The translations under genes and the position numbers were made by a program. Shown here one piece after another: positions 9,305 to 62,548 of a stretch of DNA of 64,000 bases. Under the pieces are notes generated by a model that was not told where the DNA came from, ran no database searches, and saw only the letters and a program-made list of their open reading frames with translations. The stretch is from the NCBI GenBank assembly GCA_900539525.1, contig UQCM01000009.1, positions 5,535-69,534 on the forward strand. The letters are read 5' to 3'. Position 1 is the stretch's first letter. Each line of letters opens with the position of its first letter. The DNA is from an uncultured Blautia sp. Its GTDB lineage: Bacteria; Bacillota; Clostridia; Lachnospirales; Lachnospiraceae.

Positions 9305-9349
9305 GTAACTGTTCAGAGCCGGTTTTGCGAGTGGGCTCTGAACAGTTAC
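9305..9349. repeat. Family-1 minimal element: the two TIRs (GTAACTGTTCAGAGCC / GGCTCTGAACAGTTAC) flank only 13 nt
   Basis: Perfect 16-bp inverted repeat identical to the family-1 termini. Lies 25 nt upstream of the AAA+ gene start. Confidence 0.6.
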
Positions 9350-12050: not shown

Positions 12051-12116
12051 TTGCCCCGGACTGTTTATAGAGCAGAGCGCAGATATATCCACTGTCATGC
12101 GAGCAAAGTGAGAGTC

Positions 12117-12177
12117 CTGCATGTGCAAAAGGAAAGCCTCACAGAGGCGATCTTGCGAATGGACTCTGAACAGTTAC
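12117..12177. repeat. Family-1 MITE 3' half (internal module C plus the right TIR GACTCTGAACAGTTAC)
   Basis: About 85% identical to 455-517. Confidence 0.55.
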
Positions 12178-16358: not shown

Positions 16359-17327
16359 ATGATGAGACAGGAAAACAGAAATCACAGGATAAGGGAACGG
16401 GAAAGGTTTCGCAGAATGGAAAGAAGGAGAAGAAGGGTGCGGAGGATACGCAGAGCCATTGTCTGTATGTTCAGCCTGATGATGATACTGATCCTGCTTG
16501 GAATCATCACGCATATGTTGAAACCGTTCAGAGAGATGCCGAATACGGACAGGATAAAACACGCAGTGGTTGCATTTGAACAGGAGAACATTTTGGGAGA
16601 AACTGATTCAGAAAGCAATATGAAATATGAGATTCCCTGGCTGGACGAACTGAAAGCAATGGAGAAGCAGGACGGGCGTATCAGGGGTGTAGTAGAACAT
16701 GCAGAGGAATATCCGGAAAAGGTATTAAAGATGCTTGCAAAGAATATTGAAACACTGGATTTTGTACTGAATTATTTTGATAAAAAGGATCTGCCCTGTT
16801 CGGAAACCATCGGAGAACTTGAAATGAACGGTGAGATTCCTTTGCTCATCCAGTGGGATGAGCGGTGGGGATATGGTTCTTATGGAAGCAGCATGGTAGC
16901 TGTCAGCGGCTGCGGGCCCGCCTGTATCGCTATGGTGGCATCCGGGCTGACCGGAAGGACAGATATTACCCCGTATTCGGTGGCATCCTACAGCGAAGAA
17001 AACGGCTTTCTGACACCGGAGCTTGATACCAGCTGGGATCTGATGACCTACGGCTGTGAAGTATTTGGTATTACCGGTACGATGCTGGGACTGGACGAAG
17101 CGGCTATGGCAAATACGCTGAACGGGGGCTGTCCGATTATATGCAGCATGGGTCCGGGAGACTTTACGGAAAGTGGACATTTTATAGTGCTTACATCCTA
17201 TGAGGCCGGAGCCTTCCATGTGAACGACCCCAACAGCCGGATCCGAAGCGGGCAAATCTGGAGCTATGAAACGCTGAAAGATCAGATTGTAAATATGTGG
17301 TATTATACGGTTACAGGCGATGATTAA
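16359..17327 (+). CDS. Membrane-anchored C39-like (papain-fold) peptidase-domain protein with an Arg-rich N-terminal tail
   Basis: SGCGPACIAMVASG catalytic-Cys motif of Peptidase_C39_2. One TM helix after a 30-aa poly-Arg segment. RBS GAGGGGAG. Confidence 0.6.
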   Translation: MMRQENRNHRIRERERFRRMERRRRRVRRIRRAIVCMFSLMMILILLGIITHMLKPFREMPNTDRIKHAVVAFEQENILGETDSESNMKYEIPWLDELKAMEKQDGRIRGVVEHAEEYPEKVLKMLAKNIETLDFVLNYFDKKDLPCSETIGELEMNGEIPLLIQWDERWGYGSYGSSMVAVSGCGPACIAMVASGLTGRTDITPYSVASYSEENGFLTPELDTSWDLMTYGCEVFGITGTMLGLDEAAMANTLNGGCPIICSMGPGDFTESGHFIVLTSYEAGAFHVNDPNSRIRSGQIWSYETLKDQIVNMWYYTVTGDD

Positions 17328-17399
17328 GAACAAGTTTCCTGTTTGTTACTGGTCTTTTACTATCGCAGTGCGAGATTATGCAGTATGCATCCTGCCTGT

Positions 17400-17456
17400 G
17401 CAGAAACCTTGCGTGTTACTGGCCACAGAGTGAACAGTAACACGCAAGATTTCTGC
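17400..17456. terminator. 27-bp-stem hairpin plus T-tract, built around the family-2 TIR hairpin (GTTACTGGCCAC-AGA-GTGAACAGTAAC)
   Basis: Near-perfect inverted repeat GCAGAAACCTTGCGTGTTACTGGCCAC / GTGAACAGTAACACGCAAGATTTCTGC followed by TTTTATTTTT. Degenerate element remnants lie upstream at 17344-17399. Confidence 0.6.
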
Positions 17457-17508
17457 TTTTATTTTTGGGAGATTGTGCTATAATGGAACATAGGAAAAAG
17501 ACTTCAGC

Positions 17509-18585
17509 CTAAACATGTTTCAGAAGTCCTGAAAGGTATTGCTCCAGTGCCCGGGTATCCGAAAGAAATTCGGGAGTACATTCCATGAAGTAAGAGACAT
17601 CCTTGTAGTCTTTTTTAAATAAGGGGGTAACGGCTGTGTCATATACGGGAAGAAAGCAGCCGTTTTTTCTGCAGTAGCAGGTGGAGGCTTTTGCAGGAAC
17701 ACGATGCTCCCTGTCTACATAAGACGCAACACTTTTGTGGATGGCAGTATCCTCCAATGGCAGGTAGTAATAGTTTTTATAATCATTAAAAAAATATTTC
17801 AGATTTCCCCGGAATCCATGGATACTCATTCTGCAGGAAGATCCACAGGCAGTCAGATATCCGTGTTCCAGCGGGACGGAGATCTGCTTCGGAACAGGTG
17901 TCTTAAGAGTAAGAGAAAGGAGAAGCTGAAAAGAATTCTCATCTTCTTCCATCTGTGAAACTCCGGAAAGCTCGAATTTTCCATCCAGCAGATCTGAATA
18001 GGAGAAGAGGGAAAAGAGCGATGCGGTTCCCAGAAGATCATCATGATTATGGAGAAGCAGGATTTCCTGTAAGTCGTATGCTCCGGTCTGAGCAAACTGA
18101 TGGTAGACGGAAATCAGTTTTCCACCATCCATAGTATCCTTTCTGGATACGGAGAGAAATTCTTCCAGAGATTTCAGGTTCATGGCAGAAAGCTTCAGAA
18201 GTTTTTTCAAAGGCCGGAATGTCCTGTATAAATCAATACTTTGCAGATTTTCCGGAAAAAAAGGAAGCTCGAGAGCTGTACACCTTTTCATGAGATAGGG
18301 GAGATCAAAGGCATCTCCATTAAAATGTACCAGAACTTGAAAGTCTTTCATAAAATAAAAGAAGGACGTGAGGAGCTCCTTCTCATCCTCCGGTGTTTCA
18401 CTGAGCCACTGGGTCATTTTCCAGTTGTTTTCTTCCGGGAACAGGACACCGATGAGGTAGGTAAAAGAGCTTTCAGGAGAGAAGCCTGTCGTTTCGATAT
18501 CAAAGATGACGGGTTTACCGAATGTTGAATAACGATCAGGAAATTCAAAAGCGGGAGTCCCGTATATTTCTGTTTTGGTTATCAT
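17509..18585 (-). CDS. RNase H-like 3'-5' exonuclease domain protein (YprB-like) with a Cys-rich C-terminal region
   Basis: FDIETTGFSPE DEDD-type motif. Start set at the internal ATG with a GGAGGAATTTTT RBS. Confidence 0.6.
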   Translation of the reverse strand: MITKTEIYGTPAFEFPDRYSTFGKPVIFDIETTGFSPESSFTYLIGVLFPEENNWKMTQWLSETPEDEKELLTSFFYFMKDFQVLVHFNGDAFDLPYLMKRCTALELPFFPENLQSIDLYRTFRPLKKLLKLSAMNLKSLEEFLSVSRKDTMDGGKLISVYHQFAQTGAYDLQEILLLHNHDDLLGTASLFSLFSYSDLLDGKFELSGVSQMEEDENSFQLLLSLTLKTPVPKQISVPLEHGYLTACGSSCRMSIHGFRGNLKYFFNDYKNYYYLPLEDTAIHKSVASYVDREHRVPAKASTCYCRKNGCFLPVYDTAVTPLFKKDYKDVSYFMECTPEFLSDTRALEQYLSGLLKHV

Positions 18586-18694
18586 AAAAATTCCTCCATA
18601 AAGGTTGAGCTGAAGACAGTATATCGCATTTTCCGGATTTCTCAAAGAAGAAAGTAGAAATGAACGGAAATGACAGAATGAAAGGAAAGTATGT

Positions 18695-19618
18695 ATGTGG
18701 GAAATAGAGATTGCAGGTGTGGATTTGTATCATATACTTGCCTGGCTGTTTGTATATAGTTTTCTGGGGTGGCTGTGGGAAAGCTGCTATGTATCGATCA
18801 AGCAGAAAAAACTGGTCAACAGGGGATTTGTCACCGGACCGGTATGTACGATTTACGGGGTGGGAGCAGTCAGTGTTTATTTGATCTTAAAGCCTCTGGC
18901 TGACAATCTGATCGTTCTGTATTTCGGAGGAGTTCTGGTCGCTACAGTGCTTGAATATTTTACAGCAGTCCTTATGGAGAAGCTGTTTCACACAAGCTGG
19001 TGGGATTACAGTAATAACCGGTTTAATTTCCAGGGGAGGATCTGTCTCGGAAGTTCGATCGCATGGGGATTCTTTACTGTAGTAATGTTCCGGGTCCTCC
19101 AGCCATTTGTGGAAATGATCGTCAGCCTGGTCAGCGAGAGTACAGGTCAGGTCATTCTGATGGTAGTCATGTTCGTCTATGCAGCAGATTTCGGATTTGC
19201 AACAGCGACTGCGATGGAACTCGGAAAGAAGCTGGAGCAGGTGGAGAAGGCAATGGCGGATTTCAACGATCAGCTTCAGAAATCAAAGCTTTATACCTCA
19301 GCATCTGAGGCACTGGAGGCACTGGAGAATCACAGGCGTGTACTGAGAGATTTAAATTTAAAGGAACGCATGGAGAAATACCAGGAACTGATGTCAGAGC
19401 GTTTTGAAAAGCTGGGGCTTCAGGAACAGAAGGAAGCTGCGGTGGAAAAATGGAAAGAAGTCAGTGAGAAGCTGTCTAATGCTGTCAACAGGGGAAGCTG
19501 GAACAGCAGGCGTCTGATAAAAGCATATCCAAATCTTAGTAAGGCAACCAGGGTACACAGAAAGCTCATTCATCTGAGCAGGCTTGAAAGGAAAAAACAT
19601 AAAAAGGATAAAAAATAA
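18695..19618 (+). CDS. PF06541-like membrane protein (paralogue of 5676-6974) with a C-terminal coiled-coil/basic tail
   Basis: FLGWLWESCY...NRGFVTGPVCTIYG. Lies immediately upstream of rnfC. Confidence 0.5.
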   Translation: MWEIEIAGVDLYHILAWLFVYSFLGWLWESCYVSIKQKKLVNRGFVTGPVCTIYGVGAVSVYLILKPLADNLIVLYFGGVLVATVLEYFTAVLMEKLFHTSWWDYSNNRFNFQGRICLGSSIAWGFFTVVMFRVLQPFVEMIVSLVSESTGQVILMVVMFVYAADFGFATATAMELGKKLEQVEKAMADFNDQLQKSKLYTSASEALEALENHRRVLRDLNLKERMEKYQELMSERFEKLGLQEQKEAAVEKWKEVSEKLSNAVNRGSWNSRRLIKAYPNLSKATRVHRKLIHLSRLERKKHKKDKK

Positions 19619-19635
19619 AGAAAGGAACGAGAAAG

Positions 19636-20955
19636 ATGGCAAAATTAACATTTACGGGGGGAATCCACCCTTACGATGGGAAGGACTTGTCAAAAGATAA
19701 GCCGATCCGGGACGTGTTACCTAAAGGGGAACTGGTTTATCCGCTTTCCCAGCACATCGGTGCGCCAGCAGCGCCGGTGGTGAAGAAAGGTGATCATGTT
19801 CTGGTCGGACAGATGATCGCTGAGGCAGGGGGGGTTGTATCTGCGCCGATTCATGCCTCTGTCTCAGGAACCGTGAAGGGTGTGGAAAAGCGTCTGACAG
19901 TAACGGGAATGCTGGCAGATGCGATCATTATTGAAAATGACGGTGAGTATAAGGAAATCGAATGGCCCGAAAGGAAGCCTCTGGAGAGTTTAAGCGGAGC
20001 AGAGATTCTTCAGTATGTAAAGGAGGCCGGTATCGTCGGCATGGGAGGTGCAGGTTTTCCGACTCATGTAAAGCTGTCACCGAAGGAGCCGGAGAAGATC
20101 GATTATGTCATTGCAAACTGCGCGGAATGTGAGCCGTATCTTACATCGGATTACCGGAGAATGATGGAGGAGCCGGAGAAGATCGTGGCGGGGCTTAAGG
20201 CTGCACTTCGGATCTTTCCTCATGCGAAGGGAATCCTTGCAGTTGAGAATAATAAAAGGGATGCCGCACAGCGTTTACGTGAAGCAGCAAAGAATGAGGA
20301 GAATATCGAGGTCATGGAGCTGAAAACAAAGTACCCGCAGGGTGCGGAGAGACAGCTGATCTATGCGACTACGGGTCGTAAGATCAATTCCTCCATGCTT
20401 CCGGCAGATGCAGGCTGCGTGGTAGATAACTGTGATACCATTTATGCCATCTATCAGGCAGTCTACACAGGACGTCCTCTGATGCACAGGATCGTGACAG
20501 TGACAGGTGATGCGATCGCGGATCCGCGCAATTTCCGTGTATGTACCGGAACGAATTATGCAGAGCTGGTGGATGAAGCGGGCGGATTTAAGACACAGCC
20601 GGAAAAGATCATATCGGGCGGTCCGATGATGGGATTTGGTCTTTACGATCTGAATGTACCGACGACAAAGACTTCCTCGGCACTCCTGTGTCTTACAAAG
20701 GATGAGGTGGCAGAGTACGAACCATCGAACTGTATCAACTGTGGACGATGTGTGAGTGTCTGTCCGGGAAGAGTGGTTCCGTCAAGACTGGCAGATTATG
20801 CCGAGCGCCATGATGAGGAGGCATTTGTGAAAGCAGACGGTATGGAATGCTGTGAATGCGGATGCTGCAGCTTTATCTGTCCGGCAAAACGGCCTCTGAC
20901 ACAGTACATAAAGTCCATGCGTAAGATCGTATTAGGAAACCGAAAGAAAAAATAG
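19636..20955 (+). CDS. rnfC: Rnf electron-transport complex subunit C
   Basis: N-terminal MAKLTFTGGIHP. C-terminal 2x[4Fe-4S] Cys motifs. Confidence 0.9.
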   Translation: MAKLTFTGGIHPYDGKDLSKDKPIRDVLPKGELVYPLSQHIGAPAAPVVKKGDHVLVGQMIAEAGGVVSAPIHASVSGTVKGVEKRLTVTGMLADAIIIENDGEYKEIEWPERKPLESLSGAEILQYVKEAGIVGMGGAGFPTHVKLSPKEPEKIDYVIANCAECEPYLTSDYRRMMEEPEKIVAGLKAALRIFPHAKGILAVENNKRDAAQRLREAAKNEENIEVMELKTKYPQGAERQLIYATTGRKINSSMLPADAGCVVDNCDTIYAIYQAVYTGRPLMHRIVTVTGDAIADPRNFRVCTGTNYAELVDEAGGFKTQPEKIISGGPMMGFGLYDLNVPTTKTSSALLCLTKDEVAEYEPSNCINCGRCVSVCPGRVVPSRLADYAERHDEEAFVKADGMECCECGCCSFICPAKRPLTQYIKSMRKIVLGNRKKK

Positions 20956-20965
20956 AAGGGAGAAC

Positions 20966-21904
20966 ATGAAGATGAGTGACTTATTGAATGTGTCATCCAA
21001 CCCCCATATCCGGTCACATGACACAACGGCAAAGATTATGCTTATGGTAGTAATTGCATTGCTTCCGGCAAGTGCTTTCGGTATCTTTCATTTCGGGCTG
21101 CGTGCACTTCTGCTGATACTGATATCAATTGCGACCTGCGTACTGACAGAATATACCTATGAGAAGCTGATGCACCGCAAAATCACGATCGGAGATTTCA
21201 GTGCGGTGGTAACAGGACTTCTCCTGGCATTGAATCTCCCGGTATCAGCTCCCTGGTGGATTCCGGTGTTTGGCGGTGTTTTTGCTATTTTGATCGTGAA
21301 ACAGCTTTTTGGAGGGCTGGGACAGAATTTTATGAATCCTGCACTGGGAGCCAGATGTTTTCTTCTGATTTCCTTCACAGGAAGAATGACGAACTTTGCA
21401 TTTGATGGATTTACGGGTGCTACACCGCTGGCAGCGTTGAAGGCAGGCGAATCCGTCAATCTTATGGACATGTTTCTGGGAAATACGGCTGGAACGATTG
21501 GTGAGACATCCGTCCTTGCGATCCTGTTGGGAGCAGCGATCCTCCTCTGGTTCGGAATCATTGATCTTCGGATTCCCGGAACCTATCTGGCAAGCTTTGC
21601 ACTGTTCGCAGTGCTTTTTGGCGGTCACGGACTGGATGGACAGTATCTGGTGGCTCAGCTTTGCGGCGGTGGTTTGATGCTTGGAGCATTTTTCATGGCG
21701 ACAGATTATGTGACGACTCCGATTACAAAAAAAGGACAGCTGGTTTACGGGTGTATTCTGGGAATCCTGACCGGCCTTTTCCGTATTTTCGGAAATGCAG
21801 CAGAGGGTGTATCTTATGCGATTATTATCGGAAATCTGCTGGTACCGCTGATTGAAAAGCTGACACCCCCTACAGCATTTGGCAAAGGAGGGAAAAAAGC
21901 ATGA
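20966..21904 (+). CDS. rnfD: Rnf complex subunit D
   Basis: NqrB/RnfD polytopic membrane protein in the expected order. Confidence 0.85.
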   Translation: MKMSDLLNVSSNPHIRSHDTTAKIMLMVVIALLPASAFGIFHFGLRALLLILISIATCVLTEYTYEKLMHRKITIGDFSAVVTGLLLALNLPVSAPWWIPVFGGVFAILIVKQLFGGLGQNFMNPALGARCFLLISFTGRMTNFAFDGFTGATPLAALKAGESVNLMDMFLGNTAGTIGETSVLAILLGAAILLWFGIIDLRIPGTYLASFALFAVLFGGHGLDGQYLVAQLCGGGLMLGAFFMATDYVTTPITKKGQLVYGCILGILTGLFRIFGNAAEGVSYAIIIGNLLVPLIEKLTPPTAFGKGGKKA

Positions 21905-22539
21905 ATAAAATTGTAAAAAATGCATTGATCCTGATGGCGATCACGCTGGTTGCAGGCATCTGTCTTGGATTTGTATATGAAATTACAAAGGAGCCGATTG
22001 CAATACAGGAGCAGCAGGCGAAGGAAGAAGCTTATCAGGCTGTTTTTCCCGGAATGGCTTCCATGGAAGCGGTTTATGGGCTGGACGAAGAGACGGATGC
22101 AGCACAGGTACAGGCGGAGGCAGATGCAGTCCTCACAGAAAATGATATGGGAGATATCCGGGTAGAGGAAGCATACCGCGCTGTAGATGAGAGCGGTGAG
22201 ACGCTTGGTATTGTGATGAATCTTACGACATCCGGTTATGGCGGAGAGATTAATTTTTCTATGGGTATACAGAAGGATGGGACTGTGAACGGTATCGAGA
22301 TCCTTTCCATCAGTGAGACAGCCGGTCTTGGTATGAGAGCAACAGAAGACGAATTTAAAAGTCAGTTCTCAGGAAAAAATGTTGAAAAATTTGCGGTAAC
22401 AAAGAGCGGCGCTTCTGCAGATGATGAGATTGATGCCATCAGCGGAGCTACGATTACCTCCAATGGAATGACAAAAGGTGTGAATGCGGGAATCTGCTAT
22501 TTCAGAAGCCTGGTGGAAGGAGGAGTATTCAATGAATAA
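21901..22539 (+). CDS. rnfG: Rnf complex subunit G (FMN-binding)
   Basis: FMN_bind domain with a SGAT(I/V)TS flavinylation motif. Confidence 0.8.
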   Translation: MNKIVKNALILMAITLVAGICLGFVYEITKEPIAIQEQQAKEEAYQAVFPGMASMEAVYGLDEETDAAQVQAEADAVLTENDMGDIRVEEAYRAVDESGETLGIVMNLTTSGYGGEINFSMGIQKDGTVNGIEILSISETAGLGMRATEDEFKSQFSGKNVEKFAVTKSGASADDEIDAISGATITSNGMTKGVNAGICYFRSLVEGGVFNE

Positions 22540-23215
22540 GCTGACAGAACGTCTATATAATGGAATCATAAAAGAAAATCCTACTTTTGTGTTAATGCTG
22601 GGAATGTGTCCCACGCTGGCGGTTACTACATCAGCAGTGAACGGTCTTGGCATGGGACTGACAACCACGATTATCCTGGCACTGTCGAATGCCATGATTT
22701 CCGCACTCAGGAAAATCATTCCGAATGGAGTCCGCATGCCGGCATTTATTGTGGTTGTGGCATCCTTCGTAACGATTGTACAGTTTCTGCTTCAGGGATA
22801 TGTACCGTCTCTGTATGACAGCCTGGGTATCTATATTCCGCTGATCGTGGTAAACTGTATCATATTGGGCCGTGCGGAAGCATATGCTTCTCAGAATCCG
22901 ATCCTTCCGTCTCTGTTTGACGGAATCGGTATGGGGCTTGGATTTACCATTGGACTTACCTGTATTGGTATCGTACGTGAGGTGATTGGCTCCGGAAAGA
23001 TTTTCGGTATGCAGGTCATGCCGTCATCCTATGAGCCGGTGACGATTTTTATTCTGGCTCCGGGCGCATTCCTGGTACTGTCTATGCTGACGGCACTTCA
23101 GAATAAAGTTAAGAAGAATATGGAACAAAAGGGACAGGAGACAAAGATTGGAACAGGATGTACCGGTTCCTGTGCTACATGCTCCAGCTCATGCAGTAAA
23201 GGAGGGGAAGCATAA
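22532..23215 (+). CDS. rnfE: Rnf complex subunit E
   Basis: Start set at MNKLTERLYNG with a GAAGGAGGAG RBS. Confidence 0.85.
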   Translation: MNKLTERLYNGIIKENPTFVLMLGMCPTLAVTTSAVNGLGMGLTTTIILALSNAMISALRKIIPNGVRMPAFIVVVASFVTIVQFLLQGYVPSLYDSLGIYIPLIVVNCIILGRAEAYASQNPILPSLFDGIGMGLGFTIGLTCIGIVREVIGSGKIFGMQVMPSSYEPVTIFILAPGAFLVLSMLTALQNKVKKNMEQKGQETKIGTGCTGSCATCSSSCSKGGEA

Positions 23216-23790
23216 TGGGAAAATTATTGATGATCGCAGTGGGAGCTGCATTTATTAACAATGTAGTGCTGAGCCAGTTCCTGGGTATCTGTGCGTTTGT
23301 GGGCGTTTCCAGAAAGACAGAGACAGCTGCGGGAATGGGAGCGGCAGTTGTGTTTGTTATCACCCTTTCCTCACTGATTGCAGGAGTGATCTATAAGTGC
23401 ATCCTGGTGCCGCTGAATGTCACCTATCTACAGACGATCGTTTTTATCCTGGTGATCGCTGCTCTGGTACAGCTTGTTGAGATGGTCATAAAGAAATACA
23501 GTATGGCGCTCTATGAAGCACTTGGTGTGTATCTGCCGCTGATCACAACGAACTGTGCAGTACTTGGAGTGGCATTGATCAATGTGACAAAATCCTATAC
23601 GATTTTTGAAGGTGTGGTAAATGGATTCGCAACAGCAGTGGGATTTCTGATCGCCATTGTACTGATGGCAGGTATCCGGGAAAAGACAGAGCATAATGAT
23701 ATTCCCGAATCCTTTCAGGGATCGCCAATCGTACTGCTGACAGCGTGTCTGATGGCAATCGCATTTTTCGGCTTTTCAGGACTGAAATAA
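23215..23790 (+). CDS. rnfA: Rnf complex subunit A
   Basis: RnfA/NqrE-like. The ATG overlaps the rnfE stop. Confidence 0.85.
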   Translation: MGKLLMIAVGAAFINNVVLSQFLGICAFVGVSRKTETAAGMGAAVVFVITLSSLIAGVIYKCILVPLNVTYLQTIVFILVIAALVQLVEMVIKKYSMALYEALGVYLPLITTNCAVLGVALINVTKSYTIFEGVVNGFATAVGFLIAIVLMAGIREKTEHNDIPESFQGSPIVLLTACLMAIAFFGFSGLK

Positions 23791-23802
23791 GGAGGAAGGC
23801 AT

Positions 23803-24624
23803 ATGAACGGAATAATACTGGCCGCCCTGATCGTAGGCGGTACCGGCCTGATTCTCGGTTTGTTTCTGGGACTGGCCGATAAGAAATTCAAGGTAGAAAC
23901 AGATGAAAAGGTGGAGATGATCCGTGCAGAGCTTCCCGGAAACAACTGTGGAGGATGCGGATATGCAGGATGTGACGCGGTTGCCAAGGCAATCGCAGCC
24001 GGAGAGGCAGAAGTGTCAGCCTGTCCCGTAGGAGGTGTTGTTACAGCAGCCAGAATCGCCGCTATTATGGGGAAGGAAGCAAAAGAGGAAGAACGCATGG
24101 TGGCGTTTGTCAAATGTGCCGGAACCTGTGAAAAGACCCATAGCAACTATGATTACTACGGTGTTCGGGATTGTGAAATGATGAGTTTCGTGCCATCCGG
24201 AGGACCGAAAAGCTGTAATTACGGATGTCTCGGCTATGGCTCCTGTGTGAAAGCATGCCAGTTCGATGCGATTCATGTCATTGATGGAATCGCAGTTGTA
24301 GATAAAGAAAAATGTAAGGCCTGCGGAAAATGTGTGAGCAGATGTCCGAAGCATTTGATCGAACTGGTGCCTTACAGGGCAGAGCAGCTGGTACAGTGTG
24401 CGTCCAGAGATAAGGGAAAAACTCTGATGCAGGCATGTAAGGCTGGCTGTATCGGATGCAAGAAATGCGAAAAGGAATGTCCGCAGCAGGCAGTTACAGT
24501 GACGGACAATGTGGCACATATTGATTATGCGAAATGTACAAACTGCGGCACATGCGCTTCGGTATGTCCGAGGAAGATTATCGTTACTATTCACACGTCA
24601 GCCAGTTCGAGGTGTTTTCTGTGA
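23803..24624 (+). CDS. rnfB: Rnf complex subunit B (polyferredoxin). The last 14 codons are supplied by the inserted MITE.
   Basis: Multiple CxxCxxCxxxCP motifs. The ORF runs 42 nt into the repeat copy 24583-24738. Confidence 0.85.
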   Translation: MNGIILAALIVGGTGLILGLFLGLADKKFKVETDEKVEMIRAELPGNNCGGCGYAGCDAVAKAIAAGEAEVSACPVGGVVTAARIAAIMGKEAKEEERMVAFVKCAGTCEKTHSNYDYYGVRDCEMMSFVPSGGPKSCNYGCLGYGSCVKACQFDAIHVIDGIAVVDKEKCKACGKCVSRCPKHLIELVPYRAEQLVQCASRDKGKTLMQACKAGCIGCKKCEKECPQQAVTVTDNVAHIDYAKCTNCGTCASVCPRKIIVTIHTSASSRCFL

Positions 24625-24738
24625 GTGTAGCGAAGCGAAAGTCACGTAAAAACCCGAGAGTAGCAGCGCGATATGATGCAGAATGCATCATATCTGTGCA
24701 TCGCGAAGCGTGTTACTGGTCACGGAGTGAACAGTAAC
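24583..24738 (+). mobile_element. Family-2 MITE-like element, full copy A (TIRs GTTACTATTCAC / GTGAACAGTAAC)
   Basis: About 155 bp. More than 90% identical to 28418-28572 and 55224-55379. Contains an internal 11-bp-stem palindrome GATATGATGCA-GAA-TGCATCATATC. Confidence 0.7.
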
Positions 24739-24944
24739 AGATTATCAGTACACCAGAAAAAAGGTGAGAAATTGTCAGATAGCGAAAGAGACAACGGAAA
24801 GATACAAAAGAAGTGGAAGAAAGAGCAGTCTTCGTTTATAAAGGTGCAAAATGGTTAGAATGAGAAACCGTGTCATGCAGAACGAAGTAATAAGAAAGCT
24901 GACTTTGAATGTCAGCGCTACTGAAAGAAGGGAGAAGCATGATC

Positions 24945-25934
24945 ATGAATAAGAGAAGATTTGGGGTTTTAGCTTTTTTCGTGTTTACACTCAGTCTGTT
25001 CGTTCCCGCTTCTGTATTTGCAGAGGGAAACGCGAATGGATTTGTAAAACAGGGAACAGCTACGTATTATTTTCAGGATGGAAAAATGCAGAAAGGCTGG
25101 CAGGTCGTTGATGGAAAGCGATATTTTTTTCGGAAAAACGGACAAATGGCAGTTGGGCGATACAAAATCGGAAAGACCACATACTATTTTAATACGAAGG
25201 GCGTTTGTGTAAAGAAGATTCCGGATGCATCCTGGGAAGTAGATAAGAAAGGGCGCCGCTACTGCGACGGAATGGATAAATATCTGAAGAACGGCTGGAA
25301 GACGATTCAGGGAAGAAAGTTTTGCTTCGATAAAAAGGGATATGTGCTGACGGGTATACAGACAGTAGGAAAATATACGTACTGTTTCAGCAGCAACGGT
25401 ATCATGAGAACAAACAAATGGGTGCGCTCGAATGGAGGAAAATACTATTTCGGGGCTGACGGGCGAATGGTGAGGAATGCCTGGGTGGATGATATTTATC
25501 TTGGAGATGACGGCAGGCAGATCAAAGATTATGTGGATGAGACCAGAAATAACAGTAAGAAAACGGGATGGGTAGGATATGCAAGACTCTGGAAATACTA
25601 TGTAAACGGCAAGCTTGTGACCGGATGGAAAGATATTCAGAATAAAAGATATTTCTTCCAGTCCACAGGATACATGAAAATCGGCTGGTACAATGATGGA
25701 AAGAACTATTATTTCCTGAACACCACAGCTGGAAGGGAAACTCTTGGTGTCATGGCAACGAATTTCATGAGAATTGATGGAAAGGTTTACTATTTCTTCC
25801 CGAAAGATGTGAAGGATTCTGACGGAAAGCTTCATCCAAGAGGAAGTATGGCAAGAGGGTTAATGATCCGCTATAATGGCAAGGAATACTCTTTTGATAA
25901 CCAGGGAGTATGCAAAGAGCTGACAGAGAGCTGA
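24945..25934 (+). CDS. Secreted protein with cell-wall-binding (CW_binding_1 / choline-binding-type) repeats
   Basis: Signal peptide MNKRRFGVLAFFVF...A. Repeated GW..DG..YYF modules. Confidence 0.7.
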   Translation: MNKRRFGVLAFFVFTLSLFVPASVFAEGNANGFVKQGTATYYFQDGKMQKGWQVVDGKRYFFRKNGQMAVGRYKIGKTTYYFNTKGVCVKKIPDASWEVDKKGRRYCDGMDKYLKNGWKTIQGRKFCFDKKGYVLTGIQTVGKYTYCFSSNGIMRTNKWVRSNGGKYYFGADGRMVRNAWVDDIYLGDDGRQIKDYVDETRNNSKKTGWVGYARLWKYYVNGKLVTGWKDIQNKRYFFQSTGYMKIGWYNDGKNYYFLNTTAGRETLGVMATNFMRIDGKVYYFFPKDVKDSDGKLHPRGSMARGLMIRYNGKEYSFDNQGVCKELTES

Positions 25935-25967
25935 CAGAGAATCCAAACGAAATATGAAACAAAGGAA

Positions 25968-26007
25968 AGCCGCGGTGCTGCATTTCACGTGCAGACCGCG
26001 GCTTTTA
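25968..26007. terminator. Bidirectional hairpin between convergent genes
   Basis: AAAGCCGCGGT...ACCGCGGCTTT inverted repeat. Confidence 0.55.
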
Positions 26008-26025
26008 CAAACCACAGGAGATACT

Positions 26026-27015
26026 CTACCGGGGAAATCCGGAGGAATAGTGAAGCTGGTAATCTTCTGTGATAAACAGTGCTTCTGTATCGTCCATAGA
26101 TTCAATCAGTTCCATTCCTTTTTCCATTCCAAGACCGAAGCAAGAGGTGGAGAGTGCATCGGCTTCTGCCGAAGACTCACAGAGAATGGTTACGCTGTAA
26201 AGTCCGTTGTCGAAAGGATATCCCCCGGCTGGATCCAGCAGATGATGATAAAGGATATCATTCTCTTCAAAACATCGCTCATAAATGCCGGAAGTTACCA
26301 AAGACTGATCATTTAGTGCAGCGGCAGCAATGGAATCAGAGGCATCAGCAAATGGACGCTGGATTCCAATGCGAAAAGCAGTGCCATCCGGCTTGCTTCC
26401 TACAGCCAGCACGTTACCGCCCAGATTAATCAGAGCACTGCCGGTACCTTCAGAAACGAGGAAGGCCTTCAGCTGATCGGCGATATAGCCCTTTGCAATA
26501 CCGCCGAGGTCAAGTGCCATTTCCGGATCTGTTAGAGTTACTGTGTTTCCACGCAGGAGTATCTTGCGATAATCCACATGGGAACATGCTTCTGCAATAT
26601 CCTGTCCGGAAGGAACCGCGGCATCTTTCCTGTGAAAATCCCAGATATCAGAAAGCGGGGCAATAGAACAGTCAAAGGTACCATTCGTCAGTCGGCTGTA
26701 GTAGAGAGCTGTTTCGAGCAGAGAGGCAGTCTCCTCAGATACCTCCACAGGCTGCCCATTGGCATGGTTGATCCGGTAAATGTCACTTCCTTCTATGGTA
26801 CGTGAGAATAGATGTTCATATTCTTCACAGAGCGAGAGACACTCATTCAGAAGTGTCTCTCGCTCTGTCCTGCTGTCCGTTTCATAGATCGTGACTGTGA
26901 TAACAGTATCAAAGTAAAAGCCGCTTTTGCTTACCGGATCATCTGTTTTTCCGCAGCCGGTCAATATTACGGCACTCAGGAAAGACAGCAGAAGCACAAG
27001 ACACTTTCTACACAT
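26026..27015 (-). CDS. apbE: FAD:protein FMN transferase lipoprotein (ApbE), the expected flavinylation partner of RnfG/RnfD
   Basis: Lipobox LTGCGK and ApbE-family motifs. Start ATG at 27015 overlaps the trpB2 stop. Confidence 0.8.
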   Translation of the reverse strand: MCRKCLVLLLSFLSAVILTGCGKTDDPVSKSGFYFDTVITVTIYETDSRTERETLLNECLSLCEEYEHLFSRTIEGSDIYRINHANGQPVEVSEETASLLETALYYSRLTNGTFDCSIAPLSDIWDFHRKDAAVPSGQDIAEACSHVDYRKILLRGNTVTLTDPEMALDLGGIAKGYIADQLKAFLVSEGTGSALINLGGNVLAVGSKPDGTAFRIGIQRPFADASDSIAAAALNDQSLVTSGIYERCFEENDILYHHLLDPAGGYPFDNGLYSVTILCESSAEADALSTSCFGLGMEKGMELIESMDDTEALFITEDYQLHYSSGFPR

Positions 27016-28378
27016 TCGGCAGTGAAGCAAATCCCGGAGCCAGATCTTCGTCTGTAGGGATGTAATCTCTCATCTCACCATTGTTGTATTTTCCGTATGC
27101 AACCATATCGAAGTATCCTGTTCCTGTCAGTCCGAATACAATGGTCTTTTCCTCGCCGGTTTCCCTGCACTTCAGGGCCTCATCAATGGCAACACGGATC
27201 GCATGGCTGCTTTCCGGTGCCGGAAGGATTCCTTCCACTCGTGCGAATTGCTGTGCTGCTTCAAATACTGAAGTCTGTTCGACAGAGACAGCCTCCAGAA
27301 GACCGTCATCATAGAGCTGGGAGACGGTAGAGCTCATGCCGTGGTAGCGAAGTCCGCCTGCATGGTTGGCAGATGGAATAAAGCCGCTTCCAAGAGTATA
27401 CATTTTTGCGAGCGGACAGACCATTCCGGTATCACAGAAGTCATAAGCATATCTGCCGCGGGTAAGACTCGGACAGGATGCCGGCTCTACTGCGATGATC
27501 CGGTAATGGTCTTCACCTCGAAGCATATCACCTACAAACGGGGAGATCAGGCCGCCCAGATTCGAACCGCCTCCGGCACAGCCGATGATGATATCGGGAT
27601 GAATGTCATATTTATTCAGGGCTGCTTTTGCCTCCAGGCCGATGATGGACTGATGCAGCAATACCTGGGAGAGTACAGATCCGAGCACATAGCGGTAACC
27701 TTCTGTCTTTGTTGCTGTCTCAACAGCTTCTGAGATCGCGCAGCCAAGACTGCCGGTGGTTCCGGGATGTGCAGCCAGAATCTTCTTTCCTACCTCGGTG
27801 GTTTCAGATGGGGATGGCGTCACGGAAGCGCCATACGTTCTCATAACCTCCCGGCGGAAAGGCTTCTGTTCATAGGAGACCTTTACCATGTAAACCTTAC
27901 AGTCCAGGTCAAAGTAGGAGCATGCCATGGAAAGTGCTGTGCCCCACTGACCTGCACCTGTCTCTGTAGTCACGCCCTTTAAGCCCTGCTTTTTTGCATA
28001 GTAAGCCTGAGCGATGGCAGAGTTCAGCTTGTGGCTGCCCGAGGTGTTATTTCCCTCAAACTTGTAATAGATTTTCGCAGGGGTATCTAGCTTTTTCTCA
28101 AGACAGTATGCTCTTACAAGAGGAGACGGACGGTACATTTTGTAAAAATCACGGATTTCCACCGGAATATCGATGTAAGGCGTTGTATCATCCAGCTCCT
28201 GCATGGCCAGCTCACGGCAGAAGATCTGCTCCATTTCCTCCAGAGTCAAAGGCTGCAGAGTAGCAGGATTCAGAAGCGGAGCGGGCTTGTTTTTCATATC
28301 TGCGCGGACATTGTACCACTGTCTGGGCATTTCGCTTTCTTCCAGATAAATCTTATAGGGGATTTTCTTTTCTGTCAT
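27008..28378 (-). CDS. TrpB2-type tryptophan synthase beta-like PLP enzyme
   Basis: N-terminal MTEKKIPYKIYLEE..MPRQWYNV, typical of TrpB2. Start reset to the ATG with a GAAAGGAA RBS. Confidence 0.8.
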   Translation of the reverse strand: MTEKKIPYKIYLEESEMPRQWYNVRADMKNKPAPLLNPATLQPLTLEEMEQIFCRELAMQELDDTTPYIDIPVEIRDFYKMYRPSPLVRAYCLEKKLDTPAKIYYKFEGNNTSGSHKLNSAIAQAYYAKKQGLKGVTTETGAGQWGTALSMACSYFDLDCKVYMVKVSYEQKPFRREVMRTYGASVTPSPSETTEVGKKILAAHPGTTGSLGCAISEAVETATKTEGYRYVLGSVLSQVLLHQSIIGLEAKAALNKYDIHPDIIIGCAGGGSNLGGLISPFVGDMLRGEDHYRIIAVEPASCPSLTRGRYAYDFCDTGMVCPLAKMYTLGSGFIPSANHAGGLRYHGMSSTVSQLYDDGLLEAVSVEQTSVFEAAQQFARVEGILPAPESSHAIRVAIDEALKCRETGEEKTIVFGLTGTGYFDMVAYGKYNNGEMRDYIPTDEDLAPGFASLPNV

Positions 28379-28417
28379 AGTATTAATGTTCCTTTCTTTT
28401 CTTTGTGAAGATAATTT

Positions 28418-28572
28418 GTTACTATACACACGTCAGCCAATTCGAGGTGTTTTCTGTGAGTGTAGCGAAGCGAAAGTCACAGAAAACCCAAAAGTAGCAG
28501 CGCGATATGATGCAGAATGCATCATATCTGTGCATCGCGAAGCGTTTTACTGGCCACGGAGTGAACAGTAAC
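28418..28572 (+). mobile_element. Family-2 MITE-like element, copy B (TIRs GTTACTATACAC / GTGAACAGTAAC)
   Basis: Lies 40 nt upstream of the trpB2 start codon, in the divergent region before galK. Confidence 0.7.
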
Positions 28573-28733
28573 GATGATTTCGTAAAGGCACATACCCTGC
28601 TATGCAAGTATGGTGTCTCTTCGGGTTTTTGACATTTATATCCAAAAATACTATTGTCAGTTTACTATAAGGAAAATGGGAAATCAATAGTTACTTTTCA
28701 GTCCCCTGACCAGTACTAATGTTAATTATGCAC

Positions 28734-28761
28734 TTTACAATCTTGTTAAATATGTTATAAT
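28734..28761 (+). promoter_or_regulatory. SigA-type promoter for galK-galT: TTTACA, 16 nt, TGTTATAAT (extended -10)
   Basis: Good match to the consensus, about 80 nt upstream of galK. Confidence 0.55.
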
Positions 28762-28786
28762 GATTTTAGAAACATTTTTTGTGTTT

Positions 28787-28806
28787 AAAAACAATAATAT
28801 TGTTTT
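28787..28806. promoter_or_regulatory. Candidate operator: 8-3-8 inverted repeat AAAACAAT-AAT-ATTGTTTT between the -10 and the RBS of galK
   Basis: Perfect palindrome. Its position fits a repressor binding site. Confidence 0.35.
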
Positions 28807-28841
28807 AATTCAAAATATTCAAAAGTTAAAGGAGAAGCGAA

Positions 28842-30005
28842 ATGAAGGAACAGTTATTGGGGAAATTTAAAGAGCTTTTTGGGGGTGAAGGCGATATTCG
28901 GGCTTATTTCGCACCGGGCCGTGTCAATCTGATTGGTGAGCATACAGACTACAATGGCGGACATGTATTTCCATGTGCTCTGACAATCGGAACCTATGCG
29001 GTAGCAAGAAAACGTGAAGATAAAGATTTGCGCTTCTATTCCATGAATTTTGAACGTCAGGGTGTGATAAAGACCAGTCTTCTGGAAATGGCACCTGGAA
29101 AAGAGAATATCTGGACAGCCTATCCAAAAGGAGTGATGTGGGCATTCGAGCAGCGTGGAATGGAGATTCCAAATGGTCTGGATATTGTAATCTACGGTAA
29201 TATTCCAAATGGTTCAGGATTATCTTCCTCTGCATCTCTTGAGGTTCTGACCGGCTACATATTAAAGGATATGTTCGGGTTTGATGTTACGAACCAGGAT
29301 CTGGCACTGATCGGACAGTATTCTGAAAATCATTACAATGGTGTAAACTGTGGTATTATGGATCAGTTTGCAATCGCTATGGGTAAAAAAGATCATGCGA
29401 TCTTCCTTGACACCAGCAATCTGGAGTATCAGTATGCACCGATTCATCTGGAGGGAGCAAAGATTGTCATTGCATGCAGCAATAAAAAGCGTGGTCTTGG
29501 TGATTCAAAATATAATGAAAGACGTTCCGAATGTGAGACAGCTCTTGCTGAACTGCAGAAGGTGATTAAGATAGACAACCTTGGACAGCTCACAGAGGAA
29601 GAGTTCGAGGCAAACAAAGGTGCGATCGCAGATGAAGTGCGTGTGCGCCGTGCAAAACATGCCGTATATGAGAATCAGAGAACATTGCGTGCAGTGGAGG
29701 CATTGAAGTCAGATGATATTCGTCTCTTTGGTGAGCTTATGAATGCCTCTCATGTTTCACTTCGAGATGACTATGAAGTGACAGGTATTGAACTGGATAC
29801 ACTGGTTGAAGAATCCTGGAAGCAGCCGGGTGTGATCGGTTCCCGTATGACAGGCGCCGGATTCGGAGGATGTACTGTCAGCATCGTAGAAGATGATGCC
29901 ATTGAGAACTTTAAGAAAAATGTCGGGGAAGCATACAAAGCGAAGATTGGATATGCTGCTGATTTCTATGTAGTAGAGATTGGTGACGGTCCTGTCAGAT
30001 TATAG
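28842..30005 (+). CDS. galK: Galactokinase
   Basis: GEHTDYNGG and GSGLSSSAS signatures. Confidence 0.9.
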   Translation: MKEQLLGKFKELFGGEGDIRAYFAPGRVNLIGEHTDYNGGHVFPCALTIGTYAVARKREDKDLRFYSMNFERQGVIKTSLLEMAPGKENIWTAYPKGVMWAFEQRGMEIPNGLDIVIYGNIPNGSGLSSSASLEVLTGYILKDMFGFDVTNQDLALIGQYSENHYNGVNCGIMDQFAIAMGKKDHAIFLDTSNLEYQYAPIHLEGAKIVIACSNKKRGLGDSKYNERRSECETALAELQKVIKIDNLGQLTEEEFEANKGAIADEVRVRRAKHAVYENQRTLRAVEALKSDDIRLFGELMNASHVSLRDDYEVTGIELDTLVEESWKQPGVIGSRMTGAGFGGCTVSIVEDDAIENFKKNVGEAYKAKIGYAADFYVVEIGDGPVRL

Positions 30006-33668: not shown

Positions 33669-33748
33669 AAAAAACACCTCTACTTGGCTGACATGTGAAT
33701 CGTAACAGTTACTGTTCATGTGCGTGTCAGCCAATTCGAGGTGTTTTT
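33669..33748. repeat. 80-bp palindrome made of two inverted family-2 5' modules (…GGCTGACATGTG / CGTGTCAGCC…) joined at a GTTACTGTTCA core; probable terminator of sigG
   Basis: Visible inverted repeat, followed by TTTTTCATT. Confidence 0.5.
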
Positions 33749-39845: not shown

Positions 39846-39972
39846 GTTACTGTTTACTCCGTGACCAGAAACCTGACGTGGTAACTGTTCAGAGTCATGC
39901 AGATTTATAAATATTTGCCTTGGGGAGCTTGCTCACCGGAGGCAAATTTTATAAATCTATAGGGCGAGAGCC
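39846..39972. repeat. Composite: a degenerate family-2 solo hairpin (39846-39872) followed by the family-1 5' half (39881-39972)
   Basis: 39881-39972 is about 90% identical to 365-458. Confidence 0.6.
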
Positions 39973-40096
39973 GATCACTTCTATATATGCAGTTGACAGT
40001 TTCGGGAATCTATGTTAGTATGTGTTTGCTGATTTATCACATTAGAGTGCTCAATCAGTAAAGATACCGAAAGATACAGATAATGGAGGAAGTATT

Positions 40097-41022: not shown

Positions 41023-41087
41023 GTAACTGTTCAGAGTCATGCAGATTTATAAATAATAGTGTAACTGTTCAGTACCTTCACAGTTAC
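41023..41087. repeat. Family-1 fragment: left end (GTAACTGTTCAGAGTCATGCAGATTTATAAATA) plus a second TIR pair
   Basis: Identical to the 39881 and 365 left ends. Confidence 0.55.
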
Positions 41088-42547: not shown

Positions 42548-42555
42548 GATTTTAT

Positions 42556-42582
42556 GTTACTGGTCACGGAGTGAACAGTAAA
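42556..42582. repeat. Family-2 solo TIR hairpin GTTACTGGTCAC-GGA-GTGAACAGTAAA, probably acting as a terminator
   Basis: Lies 9 nt after the ABC ATPase stop, followed by a T-rich run. Confidence 0.55.
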
Positions 42583-42729
42583 GATTTTATCGAACTTCGA
42601 ACTTGCTTTATAGATTACATTGTTATATACTTGCTATGGTGTGAGGATCAGTACACCCACGCCGGATAACTCCGGCAGGACAGAAGACATAACCGTATCA
42701 GAACATAAGAATGTGGACGGAGTGATAAT

Positions 42730-47372: not shown

Positions 47373-47447
47373 AGGTATGCCCTGGCATACCTTTTACAGA
47401 GAATTCGCCGGCAGTTCATCAGAGTTTTGATGAACTGCCGGCGTTTT
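47373..47447 (+). terminator. Two tandem rho-independent terminators after purA
   Basis: AGGTATGCC-CTG-GCATACCTTTT, then CGCCGGCAGTTCATC...GATGAACTGCCGGCGTTTT. Confidence 0.7.
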
Positions 47448-47700
47448 AAGTTATCATACGGAAAATTTGTCACTGAGCATTCTGCGTCAGTACACGCTGT
47501 GGGGAACAGAAAAGTTACCCTGGAGGAGAAACGTGCAGATCTGTCCGCTTATGTTAGACAAAAATGTCAAAAAAAAAATGGAAAGTGTAAATAATTTGTG
47601 CAAAAGATATAGTAATATAAAAGCTATCATGGCACTTATAAACGATGCGGGAAGCAAAGCATAGTGCCTCCGGCATCATGTGATGAAAAGGAGAGGAAGA

Positions 47701-53397: not shown

Positions 53398-53412
53398 CAT
53401 CACATCTGATAA

Positions 53413-53447
53413 AGAACACGCAGCTTACAGGCTGCGTGTTCTTTTTA
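53413..53447 (+). terminator. Rho-independent terminator after the GH31 gene
   Basis: AGAACACGCAGC..GCTGCGTGTTCT followed by TTTT. Confidence 0.7.
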
Positions 53448-53514: not shown

Positions 53515-53541
53515 GTTACTGTCCACTTCGTGACCAGTAAC
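53515..53541. repeat. Family-2 solo TIR hairpin (GTTACTGTCCAC-TTC-GTGACCAGTAAC) in the prfC 5' UTR
   Basis: Same palindrome as 42556-42582. Confidence 0.5.
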
Positions 53542-53608
53542 ACGCTTCCTGATGTTCTGAAAAGACAAAGATAACCGGAGAAACAAGAAAATAAGTGGAG
53601 GAATCACT

Positions 53609-55223: not shown

Positions 55224-55379
55224 GTTACTGTTCACACGTCAGCCAGTTCGAGGTGTTTTTTGTGAGTGTAGCGAAGCGAAAGTCACATAAAAACCCGAGA
55301 GTAGCAGCGCGATATGATGCAGAATGCATCATATCTGTGCATCGCGAAGCGTGTTACTGGTCACGGAGTGAACAGTAAG
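55224..55379 (+). mobile_element. Family-2 MITE-like element, copy C, with perfect 12-bp TIRs GTTACTGTTCAC / GTGAACAGTAAG
   Basis: The best-preserved copy, 156 bp. Confidence 0.7.
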
Positions 55380-62441: not shown

Positions 62442-62548
62442 GGAAGCGAAAGTCAAAGAAAACCCGAGAGTAGCAGCGCAATATGATGCGGAATGCATCA
62501 TATCTGTGCATCGCGAAGCGTGTTACTGGTCACGGAGTGAACAGTAAC
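62442..62548 (+). repeat. Family-2 MITE-like element, copy D, 5'-truncated, abutting the nadK stop codon
   Basis: Homologous to the 3' two-thirds of copies A-C. Right TIR GTGAACAGTAAC intact. Confidence 0.65.

Follow-up and report, generated by a model that had tools for sequence, protein, structure and literature searches.

The DNA considered here is a 64,000-nt stretch of contig UQCM01000009.1 from an uncultured Blautia sp. (hereafter, the window). The question that it raises concerns a palindrome-rich repeat of about 155 bp, family 2, which recurs in the window: is the repeat a mobile element or a functional RNA and, if mobile, what moves it? Our analysis indicates that family 2 is very probably a non-autonomous DNA transposon of the IS66 family, that is, a miniature inverted-repeat transposable element (MITE), which has spread through the Lachnospiraceae. 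This reading rests on the terminal inverted repeats (TIRs), on the lack of an open reading frame (ORF) of its own, on 8-bp target-site duplications (TSDs), on an orthologous empty site and on the existence of autonomous IS66 elements with the same ends and the same TSD. The size, the TIRs and the fixed length of the TSD are those of a MITE; the empty site was found for copy 1, and the autonomous relatives with matching ends in other genomes. The original prediction, a MITE mobilised in trans, is thereby supported, the ends shared with IS66-family elements amounting to the terminal 12-15 nt. As such, the repeat is an element of a known kind, a bacterial MITE, with one unusual trait: a 27-bp foldback that is also found solo, with TSDs.

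Four copies lie in the window:

24583-24738, + strand: family-2 (type A) probable MITE, copy 1; 156 bp, overlapping the rnfB stop codon
28418-28572, + strand: family-2 copy 2; 155 bp, between the divergent pyridoxal-phosphate (PLP)-enzyme gene and galactokinase gene
55224-55379, + strand: family-2 copy 3; 156 bp, between prfC (RF3) and asp23
62393-62548, + strand: family-2 copy 4; overlapping the 3' end of the NAD kinase gene, with no recognisable TSD

Pairwise identities among copies 1-3 are 94.2%, 98.1% and 93.5%, in agreement with the three full copies, similarly oriented and more than 90% identical, of the original prediction. The fourth copy, described there as 5'-truncated at 62442-62548, does exist but is not cleanly truncated: it is 92-95% identical to the other copies over 62438-62548, and its decayed 5' part, which reaches into the NAD kinase ORF, retains weak homology as far as about 62393. 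The gene positions of all four copies also agree with the placement at gene 3' ends or between genes that had been claimed. ORFs crossing the 155-156-bp elements are host-gene tails only; none belongs to the element itself.

From left to right, the element is composed of the 5' TIR (GTTACTGTTCAC), a conserved block (CGAGGTGTTTT), stem-loop 1, the segments AAAACCCGAG and GCAGCGCGA, stem-loop 2, the segment TCTGTGCATCGCGAAGCGT and the 27-bp foldback. The corresponding positions in copy 1 are:

24583-24594, + strand: 5' TIR, GTTACTATTCAC (consensus GTTACTGTTCAC)
24620-24646, + strand: inner stem-loop 1, a predicted fold whose sequence differs between species with compensatory changes
24670-24694, + strand: inner stem-loop 2, a palindrome with an 11-bp stem and a GAA loop
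24712-24738, + strand: terminal 27-bp foldback, GTTACTGGTCAC-GGA-GTGAACAGTAAC, containing a single G.A mismatch; the outer arm serves as the 3' TIR

Since the 3' end is itself a foldback, each element contains three copies of the 12-mer. The TIRs pair over a 12-bp core (GTTACTGTTCAC ... GTGAACAGTAAC) with an imperfect extension to about 23 bp, and this helix 1 is 98.9% paired. The 12-bp TIRs of the original prediction are thus present, but copy 3 alone has an exact 5' TIR, copies 1 and 2 having GTTACTATTCAC and GTTACTATACAC, respectively. The perfect 11-bp-stem palindrome noted at the same time, GATATGATGCA-GAA-TGCATCATATC, is exact in copies 1-3 and has two mismatches in copy 4; shuffling the sequence 100 times yielded no match to it. 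The loop of the terminal foldback is GGA in 115 of 132 cases, and 108 of 120 hairpins have the G.A-mismatch form (the metagenome sample being unbiased at the mismatch positions).

Had only these four copies existed, the original prediction would by its own terms have been refuted; this is not the case. The window contains five additional pieces related to family 2:

17345-17441, + strand: shorter relative, 97 bp; by BLAST, 17365-17441 is about 78% identical to the family-2 3' half
33675-33743, no strand assigned: two family-2 5' ends, head to head (...GTGAATCGTAAC-A-GTTACTGTTCAT...)
39846-39872, - strand: solo 27-bp hairpin, slightly decayed, 8 bp upstream of an element of the sister family 1 (see below)
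42556-42582, + strand: solo 27-bp hairpin with a perfect 8-bp duplication, GATTTTAT, at 42548-42555 and 42583-42590
53515-53554, - strand: reversed 3'-end fragment, the hairpin plus 13 nt, partly deleted in other strains

Allowing one mismatch, the 12-mer GTTACTGTTCAC occurs 16 times in the window (0.15 expected). When one genome per species was scanned with the 26-nt hairpin core, exact matches were obtained in more than 118 places across many genera of Lachnospiraceae, including Anaerobium, Blautia, Dorea, Murimonas, Eisenbergiella, Acetatifactor, Kineothrix, Robinsoniella and Roseburia. The elements fall into size classes: solo hairpins of 27 bp; type B, 132-135 bp, which has a different body and the same terminal hairpin as type A; and type A, that is family 2, of 142-145, 151-156 or 168 bp.

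The 8-bp TSDs that the original prediction left to be looked for are present at frequencies far above the shifted control. Copy 1 is flanked by a perfect duplication (8/8) of AGATTATC, at 24575-24582 on the left and 24739-24746 on the right. The flanks of copy 2 (GATAATTT / GATGATTT) agree at 7 of 8 positions and those of copy 3 (TGTCAAGA / CGTTAAGA) at 6 of 8; together with the solo hairpin at 42556, the window thus scores 8/8, 8/8, 7/8 and 6/8. In a sample made of 118 Lachnospiraceae genome loci and the window, 110 hairpin elements have enough flanking sequence for the count. An 8-bp TSD matching at 7 or more positions accompanies 59 of them and is perfect in 41, as against none at this threshold in the shifted control. 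An independent metagenome sample gave TSDs in 44 of 94 elements, again with none in the control. Solo 27-bp hairpins account for 15 of the TSD-flanked cases in genomes and 16 in metagenomes. At the mismatch (position 8), those of the unbiased sample have G.A in 13 cases, T.A in two and G.C in one, a distribution compatible with self-transposition as well as with deletion. Solo hairpins may be self-mobile, or they may be the products of deletions between the two direct 12-mers.

The orthologous empty-site comparison, made for copy 1, shows what such an insertion has done to a host gene. The rnfB locus of an 86%-identical relative (L121) lacks the element. In the window, rnfB takes its final 13 codons and its stop codon from copy 1, which has replaced the last 6 codons of the gene with 13 new ones, so that RnfB now ends in ...CPRKIIVTIHTSASSRCFL. 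Removing copy 1 and one TSD in silico yields a protein of 266 residues ending in ...CPRKIISTPEKR (...IISTPEKR). RnfB homologues are 261-270 residues long, lack the 13-residue tail and align to 95-96% of the query; two of them, P0003 and P0006, end in SNIPQK and TGIPEKR. One contig of the same species stops 77 bp past the rnfB stop codon, inside copy 1, as expected of a multi-copy repeat. The NAD kinase gene may offer a second case of an element-supplied protein tail: of its 287 residues, the NAD_kinase_C domain extends to residue 270, and the last 16 or so codons (62393-62441), beyond the domain, overlap the decayed 5' part of copy 4.

What could move the element? An 8-bp TSD together with ends of the form GT.ACTGTTCA directed attention to the IS66 family. 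In ISDge4, a member of the ISBst12 group, the TIRs are GTGACTACTCAGCA / GTAACTGCTCAGCA and the direct repeat is 8 bp long (PMC12898284). The ends of canonical IS682, in E. coli Sakai, read GTAAGCG, and its TSD is the 8-bp sequence TCTTTCTC. Single-ORF elements of the ISBst12 type, from Geobacillus, Bacillus and Planococcus plasmids, end in GTAACTATTCAG/C, GTAACTACTCAG and GTAACTACTTAG:

Geobacillus kaustophilus ISBst12-type element: ends GTATCTATTCAGCC / GTAACTATTCAGCC, TSD perfect
G. thermoleovorans ISBst12-type element: ends GTAACTATTCAGCC / GTAACTATTCACCC, TSD perfect
Bacillus thuringiensis ISBst12-type element: end GTAACTACTCAGCTT, TSD 7/8
Planococcus ISBst12-type element: end GTAACTACTTAGGT, TSD perfect

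The 5' end of copy 1 (GTTACTATTCAC) is identical to the right end of the G. thermoleovorans element (GTAACTATTCAC) at 11 of 12 positions. The window element ends in GTTACT.., one base away from the GTAACT.. of the ISBst12 type, and GTTACT is common to the insertion sequences (ISs) of Lachnospiraceae. In a human faecal contig, an IS66-type transposase gene is followed by the end ...ACCTCTGAACAGTAAC. Homologues of this transposase are 557-559 residues long and carry a DDE_Tnp_IS66 domain (PF03050): P0223 scores 75 bits on PF03050, with a cut-off of 23.1, and a precomputed match to it is present in 120 of 120 homologues. They belong to clusters of 8182 and 1955 member sequences, whose source names include Blautia stercoris, a Lachnospiraceae metagenome-assembled genome (MAG) and Petrocella.

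The type of cognate transposase that the original prediction implied was found outside the window, in IS66-family ISs with matching TIRs. These ISs, from Blautia stercoris, a 4.8-Mb contig and gut metagenomes, are 2.24-2.25 kb long, have ends GTTACTGTTCA(C/G) and are flanked by 8-bp TSDs. Two copies in the 4.8-Mb contig (L160/L161) measure 2251 bp, start with GTTACTGTTCACTCC, end with ...CTGAACAGTAAC and have the perfect TSDs TAAAATAG and ATCGGAAC. The consensus GTTACTGTTCAC is identical to their left end at 12 of 12 positions, and their first 15 nt are the reverse complement of the MITE 3' end (15/15). The Blautia stercoris IS (L165/L168) is 2248 bp long, with perfect 16-bp TIRs (GTTACTGTTCAGAGGT) and the perfect TSDs TTATTATA and TTTTTATT. 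Overall, MITE and Lachnospiraceae IS ends show 12-16 nt of exact identity. More broadly, IS66 elements lacking tnpA and tnpB (ISBst12, ISDge4, the Geobacillus ISGka4 type, L160/L161 and L165) and the MITE have in common ends of the form GT(A/T)ACT(G/A)(T/C)TCA(G/C) and an 8-bp TSD. The Lachnospiraceae ISs do not have the canonical tnpA/tnpB/tnpC layout: an ORF of 54-57 codons precedes the transposase gene, and neither tnpA nor tnpB is present. This arrangement resembles the single-transposase layout of the ISBst12 type, in which, among the members examined and in ISDge4, one protein of about 450-490 residues is encoded instead of a 54-57-residue and a 557-559-residue product. Searching plasmids with E. 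coli IS682 TnpC (tblastn) gave mostly enterobacterial matches, and the canonical IS66 elements in the faecal contigs of the phage search have GTAAGC or GTATCA ends, not those of the MITE. Sources related to IS4 (ISPepr1, IS701) were considered and rejected, as either the end consensus or the TSD length does not fit.

We therefore propose that an enzyme of the IS66 type mobilises the MITE. A DDE transposase (Pfam DDE_Tnp_IS66, about 558 residues) would be supplied in trans from the 2.24-2.25-kb ISs ending in GTTACTGTTCA(C/G) and would bind the two outer 12-mers; insertion of the element at an 8-bp staggered cut would then generate the 8-bp TSD.

Several results weigh against this reading or are left unexplained by it. 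First, insertion polymorphism was not seen among the strains compared. Copy 3 is present in 6 of 6 strain contigs compared by BLAST, and the prfC-asp23 spacing is the same in 8 of 8 shown. At the 42556 solo hairpin, two BLAST-compared strain contigs are collinear with the window and the spacing of the flanking genes is the same in 10 of 10 shown. The only polymorphism within the species is the partial deletion of the 53515 fragment in some strains. Since copy 3 and the 42556 solo hairpin are present in every strain compared, the window copies look old, and presumably only insertions at tolerated positions have survived. Second, no IS66-type transposase was found in the window (tblastn matches all at E of 0.6 or more) or in the 0.94 Mb made up of the hairpin-bearing genome loci and the window. 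The absence of a transposase from the window, claimed in the original prediction, thus holds for the IS66 type; for other transposase families, no screen covering every window ORF was made. Three scans of the fetched loci for TIR pairs enclosing ORFs returned only ordinary genes flanked by elements, among them, as identified by eye, genes for malic enzyme, an aldo-keto reductase and a MATE pump. Third, the matching ISs reside in other genomes, with no IS contig tied to the window's own MAGs, and the MITEs have only the terminal 12-15 nt in common with them and nothing internal. The MITEs are therefore not simple deletion derivatives of the ISs found. Besides lacking a transposase gene, they differ from IS66-type ISs in having an extra inverted copy of the TIR, which makes the 27-bp foldback at one end, and two covarying stem-loops.

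These stems are the last of the difficulties. The folding z-scores of copy 1 are -4.7 (+ strand) and -5.1 (- strand). In an alignment of 16 type-A elements, 96.7% of the cells are paired and 15 of 43 pairs have changed on both sides (7 in helix 2, stem-loop 1, and 8 in helix 3, stem-loop 2), as compared to 9.9 +/- 1.4 in shuffles, of which 1 in 500 reached 15, and 2-4 in slid controls. In 36 of 41 elements the + strand is the better folded of the two, by a mean of 3.8 kcal/mol and with more G.U pairs, an asymmetry that is suggestive only, because the sequences are related to one another. Covariation and strand asymmetry suggest that some constraint acts which is not accounted for by plain cut-and-paste of double-stranded DNA. 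Selection acting on a folded single strand, either DNA in the course of transposition or RNA, may maintain the inner stems; so may template-switch correction of quasi-palindromes, which can keep palindromes perfect in the absence of selection.

One way to accommodate these features within transposition, though we consider it doubtful, is that the minimal mobile unit is the 27-bp foldback, consisting of two ends of 12 bp with the GGA loop and the conserved G.A, and that a folded single strand, always of one polarity, is what is recognised or moved in its case and in that of the longer elements. The mechanism of IS66-type transposition is poorly known. A rigid 27-bp duplex cannot bring its tips together for insertion with an 8-bp stagger; a hairpin can. 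To our knowledge, a 27-bp unit is far below the size of any MITE described. If correct, the proposal would explain why the loops are GNA, why the stems are kept by compensatory change from genus to genus and why the + strand folds better, and it would mean that IS66-type transposition uses structured single-stranded ends.

An improbable alternative is that the elements persist through host use, as terminators, mRNA stabilisers or outward promoters. Their positions at gene 3' ends and in intergenic DNA, and the high stability of the predicted hairpins, would suit such a role, and the original prediction had indeed suggested that they act as terminators or carry outward-facing signals. When the region 17000-30000 was scanned for consensus matches, copies 1 and 2 were free of terminator-like sites and had promoter matches of 9/12 only, at background level (25 found vs 19.9 expected). 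All four copies, like typical members of the family, end in GTAAC followed by the TSD position without a run of T residues, and both orientations occur; the suggestion is thus not supported. A further point in its favour comes from the 17345-17441 variant. Within 17400-17470 its stem continues into flanking sequence (GCAGAAA..TTGCGT / ACGCAAG..TTCTGC), and a T-run, TTTTATTTTT, comes after it; the variant is the only copy resembling an intrinsic terminator, although the terminator scan did not flag it.

Much less probable is that the repeats are gene-linked copies of a structured RNA, a cis-regulatory or small RNA kept for its fold. The z-scores, the double-sided changes and the + strand preference described above would all be expected of such an RNA, and so would a 2:1 bias toward co-direction with flanking genes: among the 93 of 126 hairpins having genes on both sides, 38 are co-directional with both and 19 antisense, whereas 27 lie between divergent and 9 between convergent genes. 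The same figures argue the other way, since 19 antisense elements and 36 between divergent or convergent genes do not amount to the fixed orientation and position of a riboswitch, and the flanking genes are unrelated to one another. No Rfam family matched at its gathering score, and the only three matches at E of 1 or less all fall elsewhere in the window. Moreover, copies overlap coding 3' ends, 8-bp TSDs and an empty site are present, and, as already mentioned, template switching can keep palindromes without selection. A covarying RNA such as a riboswitch was the case that the original prediction had set against itself. Covariation does occur, in the two inner stems, but it coexists with the hallmarks of a transposon and with both gene orientations, and hence does not denote a riboswitch.

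Also very hard to sustain is a relationship to REP/REPIN palindromes, in which a RAYT (a Y1 HUH transposase like those of IS200/IS605) would move the element in single-stranded form. There are several likenesses: both are short imperfect palindromes, here with a GNA triloop (mostly GGA) and a mismatch that is conserved, that populate intergenic DNA at high density, occur in solo and composite forms and keep their hairpin across related genomes. Strand-asymmetric folding and the absence of an IS adjoining the copies could be added to the list. However, REPs are tied to a Y1 HUH enzyme, and REP/RAYT and IS200/IS605 insertions make no target duplication, whereas about half of the present copies keep an 8-bp TSD, and DDE-type elements of the IS66 family have ends identical to those of the repeat over 12-15 nt. 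It is the TSD and these ends that set the elements apart from REPs. Finally, we give almost no credence to an enzyme of the IS6/IS26 type, for example from the long clostridial clade. This family does make 8-bp TSDs and has the TIR consensus GGTTCTGTTGCAAA (PMC6807381), which has G1 and CTGTT (positions 5-9) in common with GTTACTGTTCAC. The match extends to only 8 of 12 positions, no IS6-type element with the MITE ends was seen, and the lead was dropped once IS66-family elements with 12-16 nt of exact identity to these ends had been found.

As a MITE, the element has counterparts in other bacteria. Classical MITEs such as Correia elements in Neisseria, ERIC/IRU in enterobacteria, RUP in pneumococci and bcr1 in Bacillus cereus are about 100-170 bp long, have TIRs and TSDs (TA for Correia and RUP) and occur in many intergenic copies. 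They fold strongly, are mobilised in trans and are occasionally fused to gene ends. In size, TIRs and TSDs, intergenic copies, folding and gene-end fusion, the window element resembles them. It differs in the proposed transposase family and the TSD, in belonging to a family that spans many genera of one bacterial family, and in being modular, with type A and type B bodies attached to the same terminal hairpin and with a 27-bp minimal form. No description of the TIR strings or of a Lachnospiraceae MITE was found in the literature searched, whose coverage is incomplete and leaves out ISfinder.

Lachnospiraceae are core members of the human gut microbiota, and an element of this kind has practical consequences for their genomics. 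It breaks metagenome assemblies, as in the contig ending inside copy 1; it creates false or altered gene ends, such as the 13 foreign residues of RnfB and the overlap with the NAD kinase tail; and, owing to its covarying stems, it can pass for a regulatory RNA. It also ties abundant and mostly unnamed gut transposases, those of the 8182- and 1955-sequence clusters, to defined ends and an 8-bp TSD. At 27-156 bp, it is a compact substrate for studying IS66-type transposases.

A sister family, family 1, accounts for five further pieces of the window and has the ends GTAACTGTTCAGAGTC ... GACTCTGAACAGTTAC:

365-517: family-1 piece
9305-9349: family-1 piece, a 45-bp form made of the TIRs only
12110-12177: family-1 piece
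39881-39975: family-1 piece
41023-41087: family-1 piece

Family-1 ends are identical to the ISDge4 TIR at 11 of 14 positions and are close to the ISBst12-type ends of Geobacillus and Bacillus; TSDs of the window copies are not clear. Together, families 1 and 2 make up 14 pieces and about 1.3 kb, that is 2% of the window, or approximately one piece per 5 kb.

On extrachromosomal DNA, BLAST with the element gave no match among plasmids and, among phages, matches of 74-75% identity in two unannotated faecal contigs. Copies of the element family are also present on small human-faecal contigs labelled viral or 'Bacteriophage sp.' (L002 from IMG/VR, MT836813.1 and MT838670.1); at about 150-211 of L002 lies a 60-bp form whose 5' end, GTTACTGTTCAGAGG, is the TIR of the Blautia IS. 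Elsewhere (L016:1149-1423), a 133-bp type-B element has been duplicated along with its TSD: two identical copies stand in tandem, and the 8-bp sequence AAGCTGAC follows both of them.

Insertions tend to fall within or next to the ends of existing elements (L163:974-1001, L164:3250-3260 and L167:790-800; also L022, L035 and L097). The Blautia IS adjoins a decayed hairpin with the TSD CAGTAATG, and another copy of the IS abuts ...CAGTAAC. Several MITE TSDs (AACAGTTC, CAGCAGTT, CAGTTCAG) lie inside the apparent TIRs of other elements. One copy of the gut IS, at 718-2955 of L290-L299, has the same flanks in the ten places shown (23 contigs read, from many samples). It has no TSD (cccatagc / gaaaattc) and its left TIR matches the right one over 13 bp only; it may be an old or rearranged insertion.

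Two other rearrangements were recorded on the way. A gene for a 1905-residue GH31-type protein, at 47424-53410 of the window, is a strain indel: in several metagenome strains and in one NCBI MAG, purA is followed directly by prfC. The junctions of the indel fall in similar palindromic, terminator-like hairpins (47406-47443 and 53411-53444). At L098:3537-4799, perfect 42-bp inverted repeats surround about 1.2 kb within an apparent MATE-type transporter gene, a segment that could be invertible.

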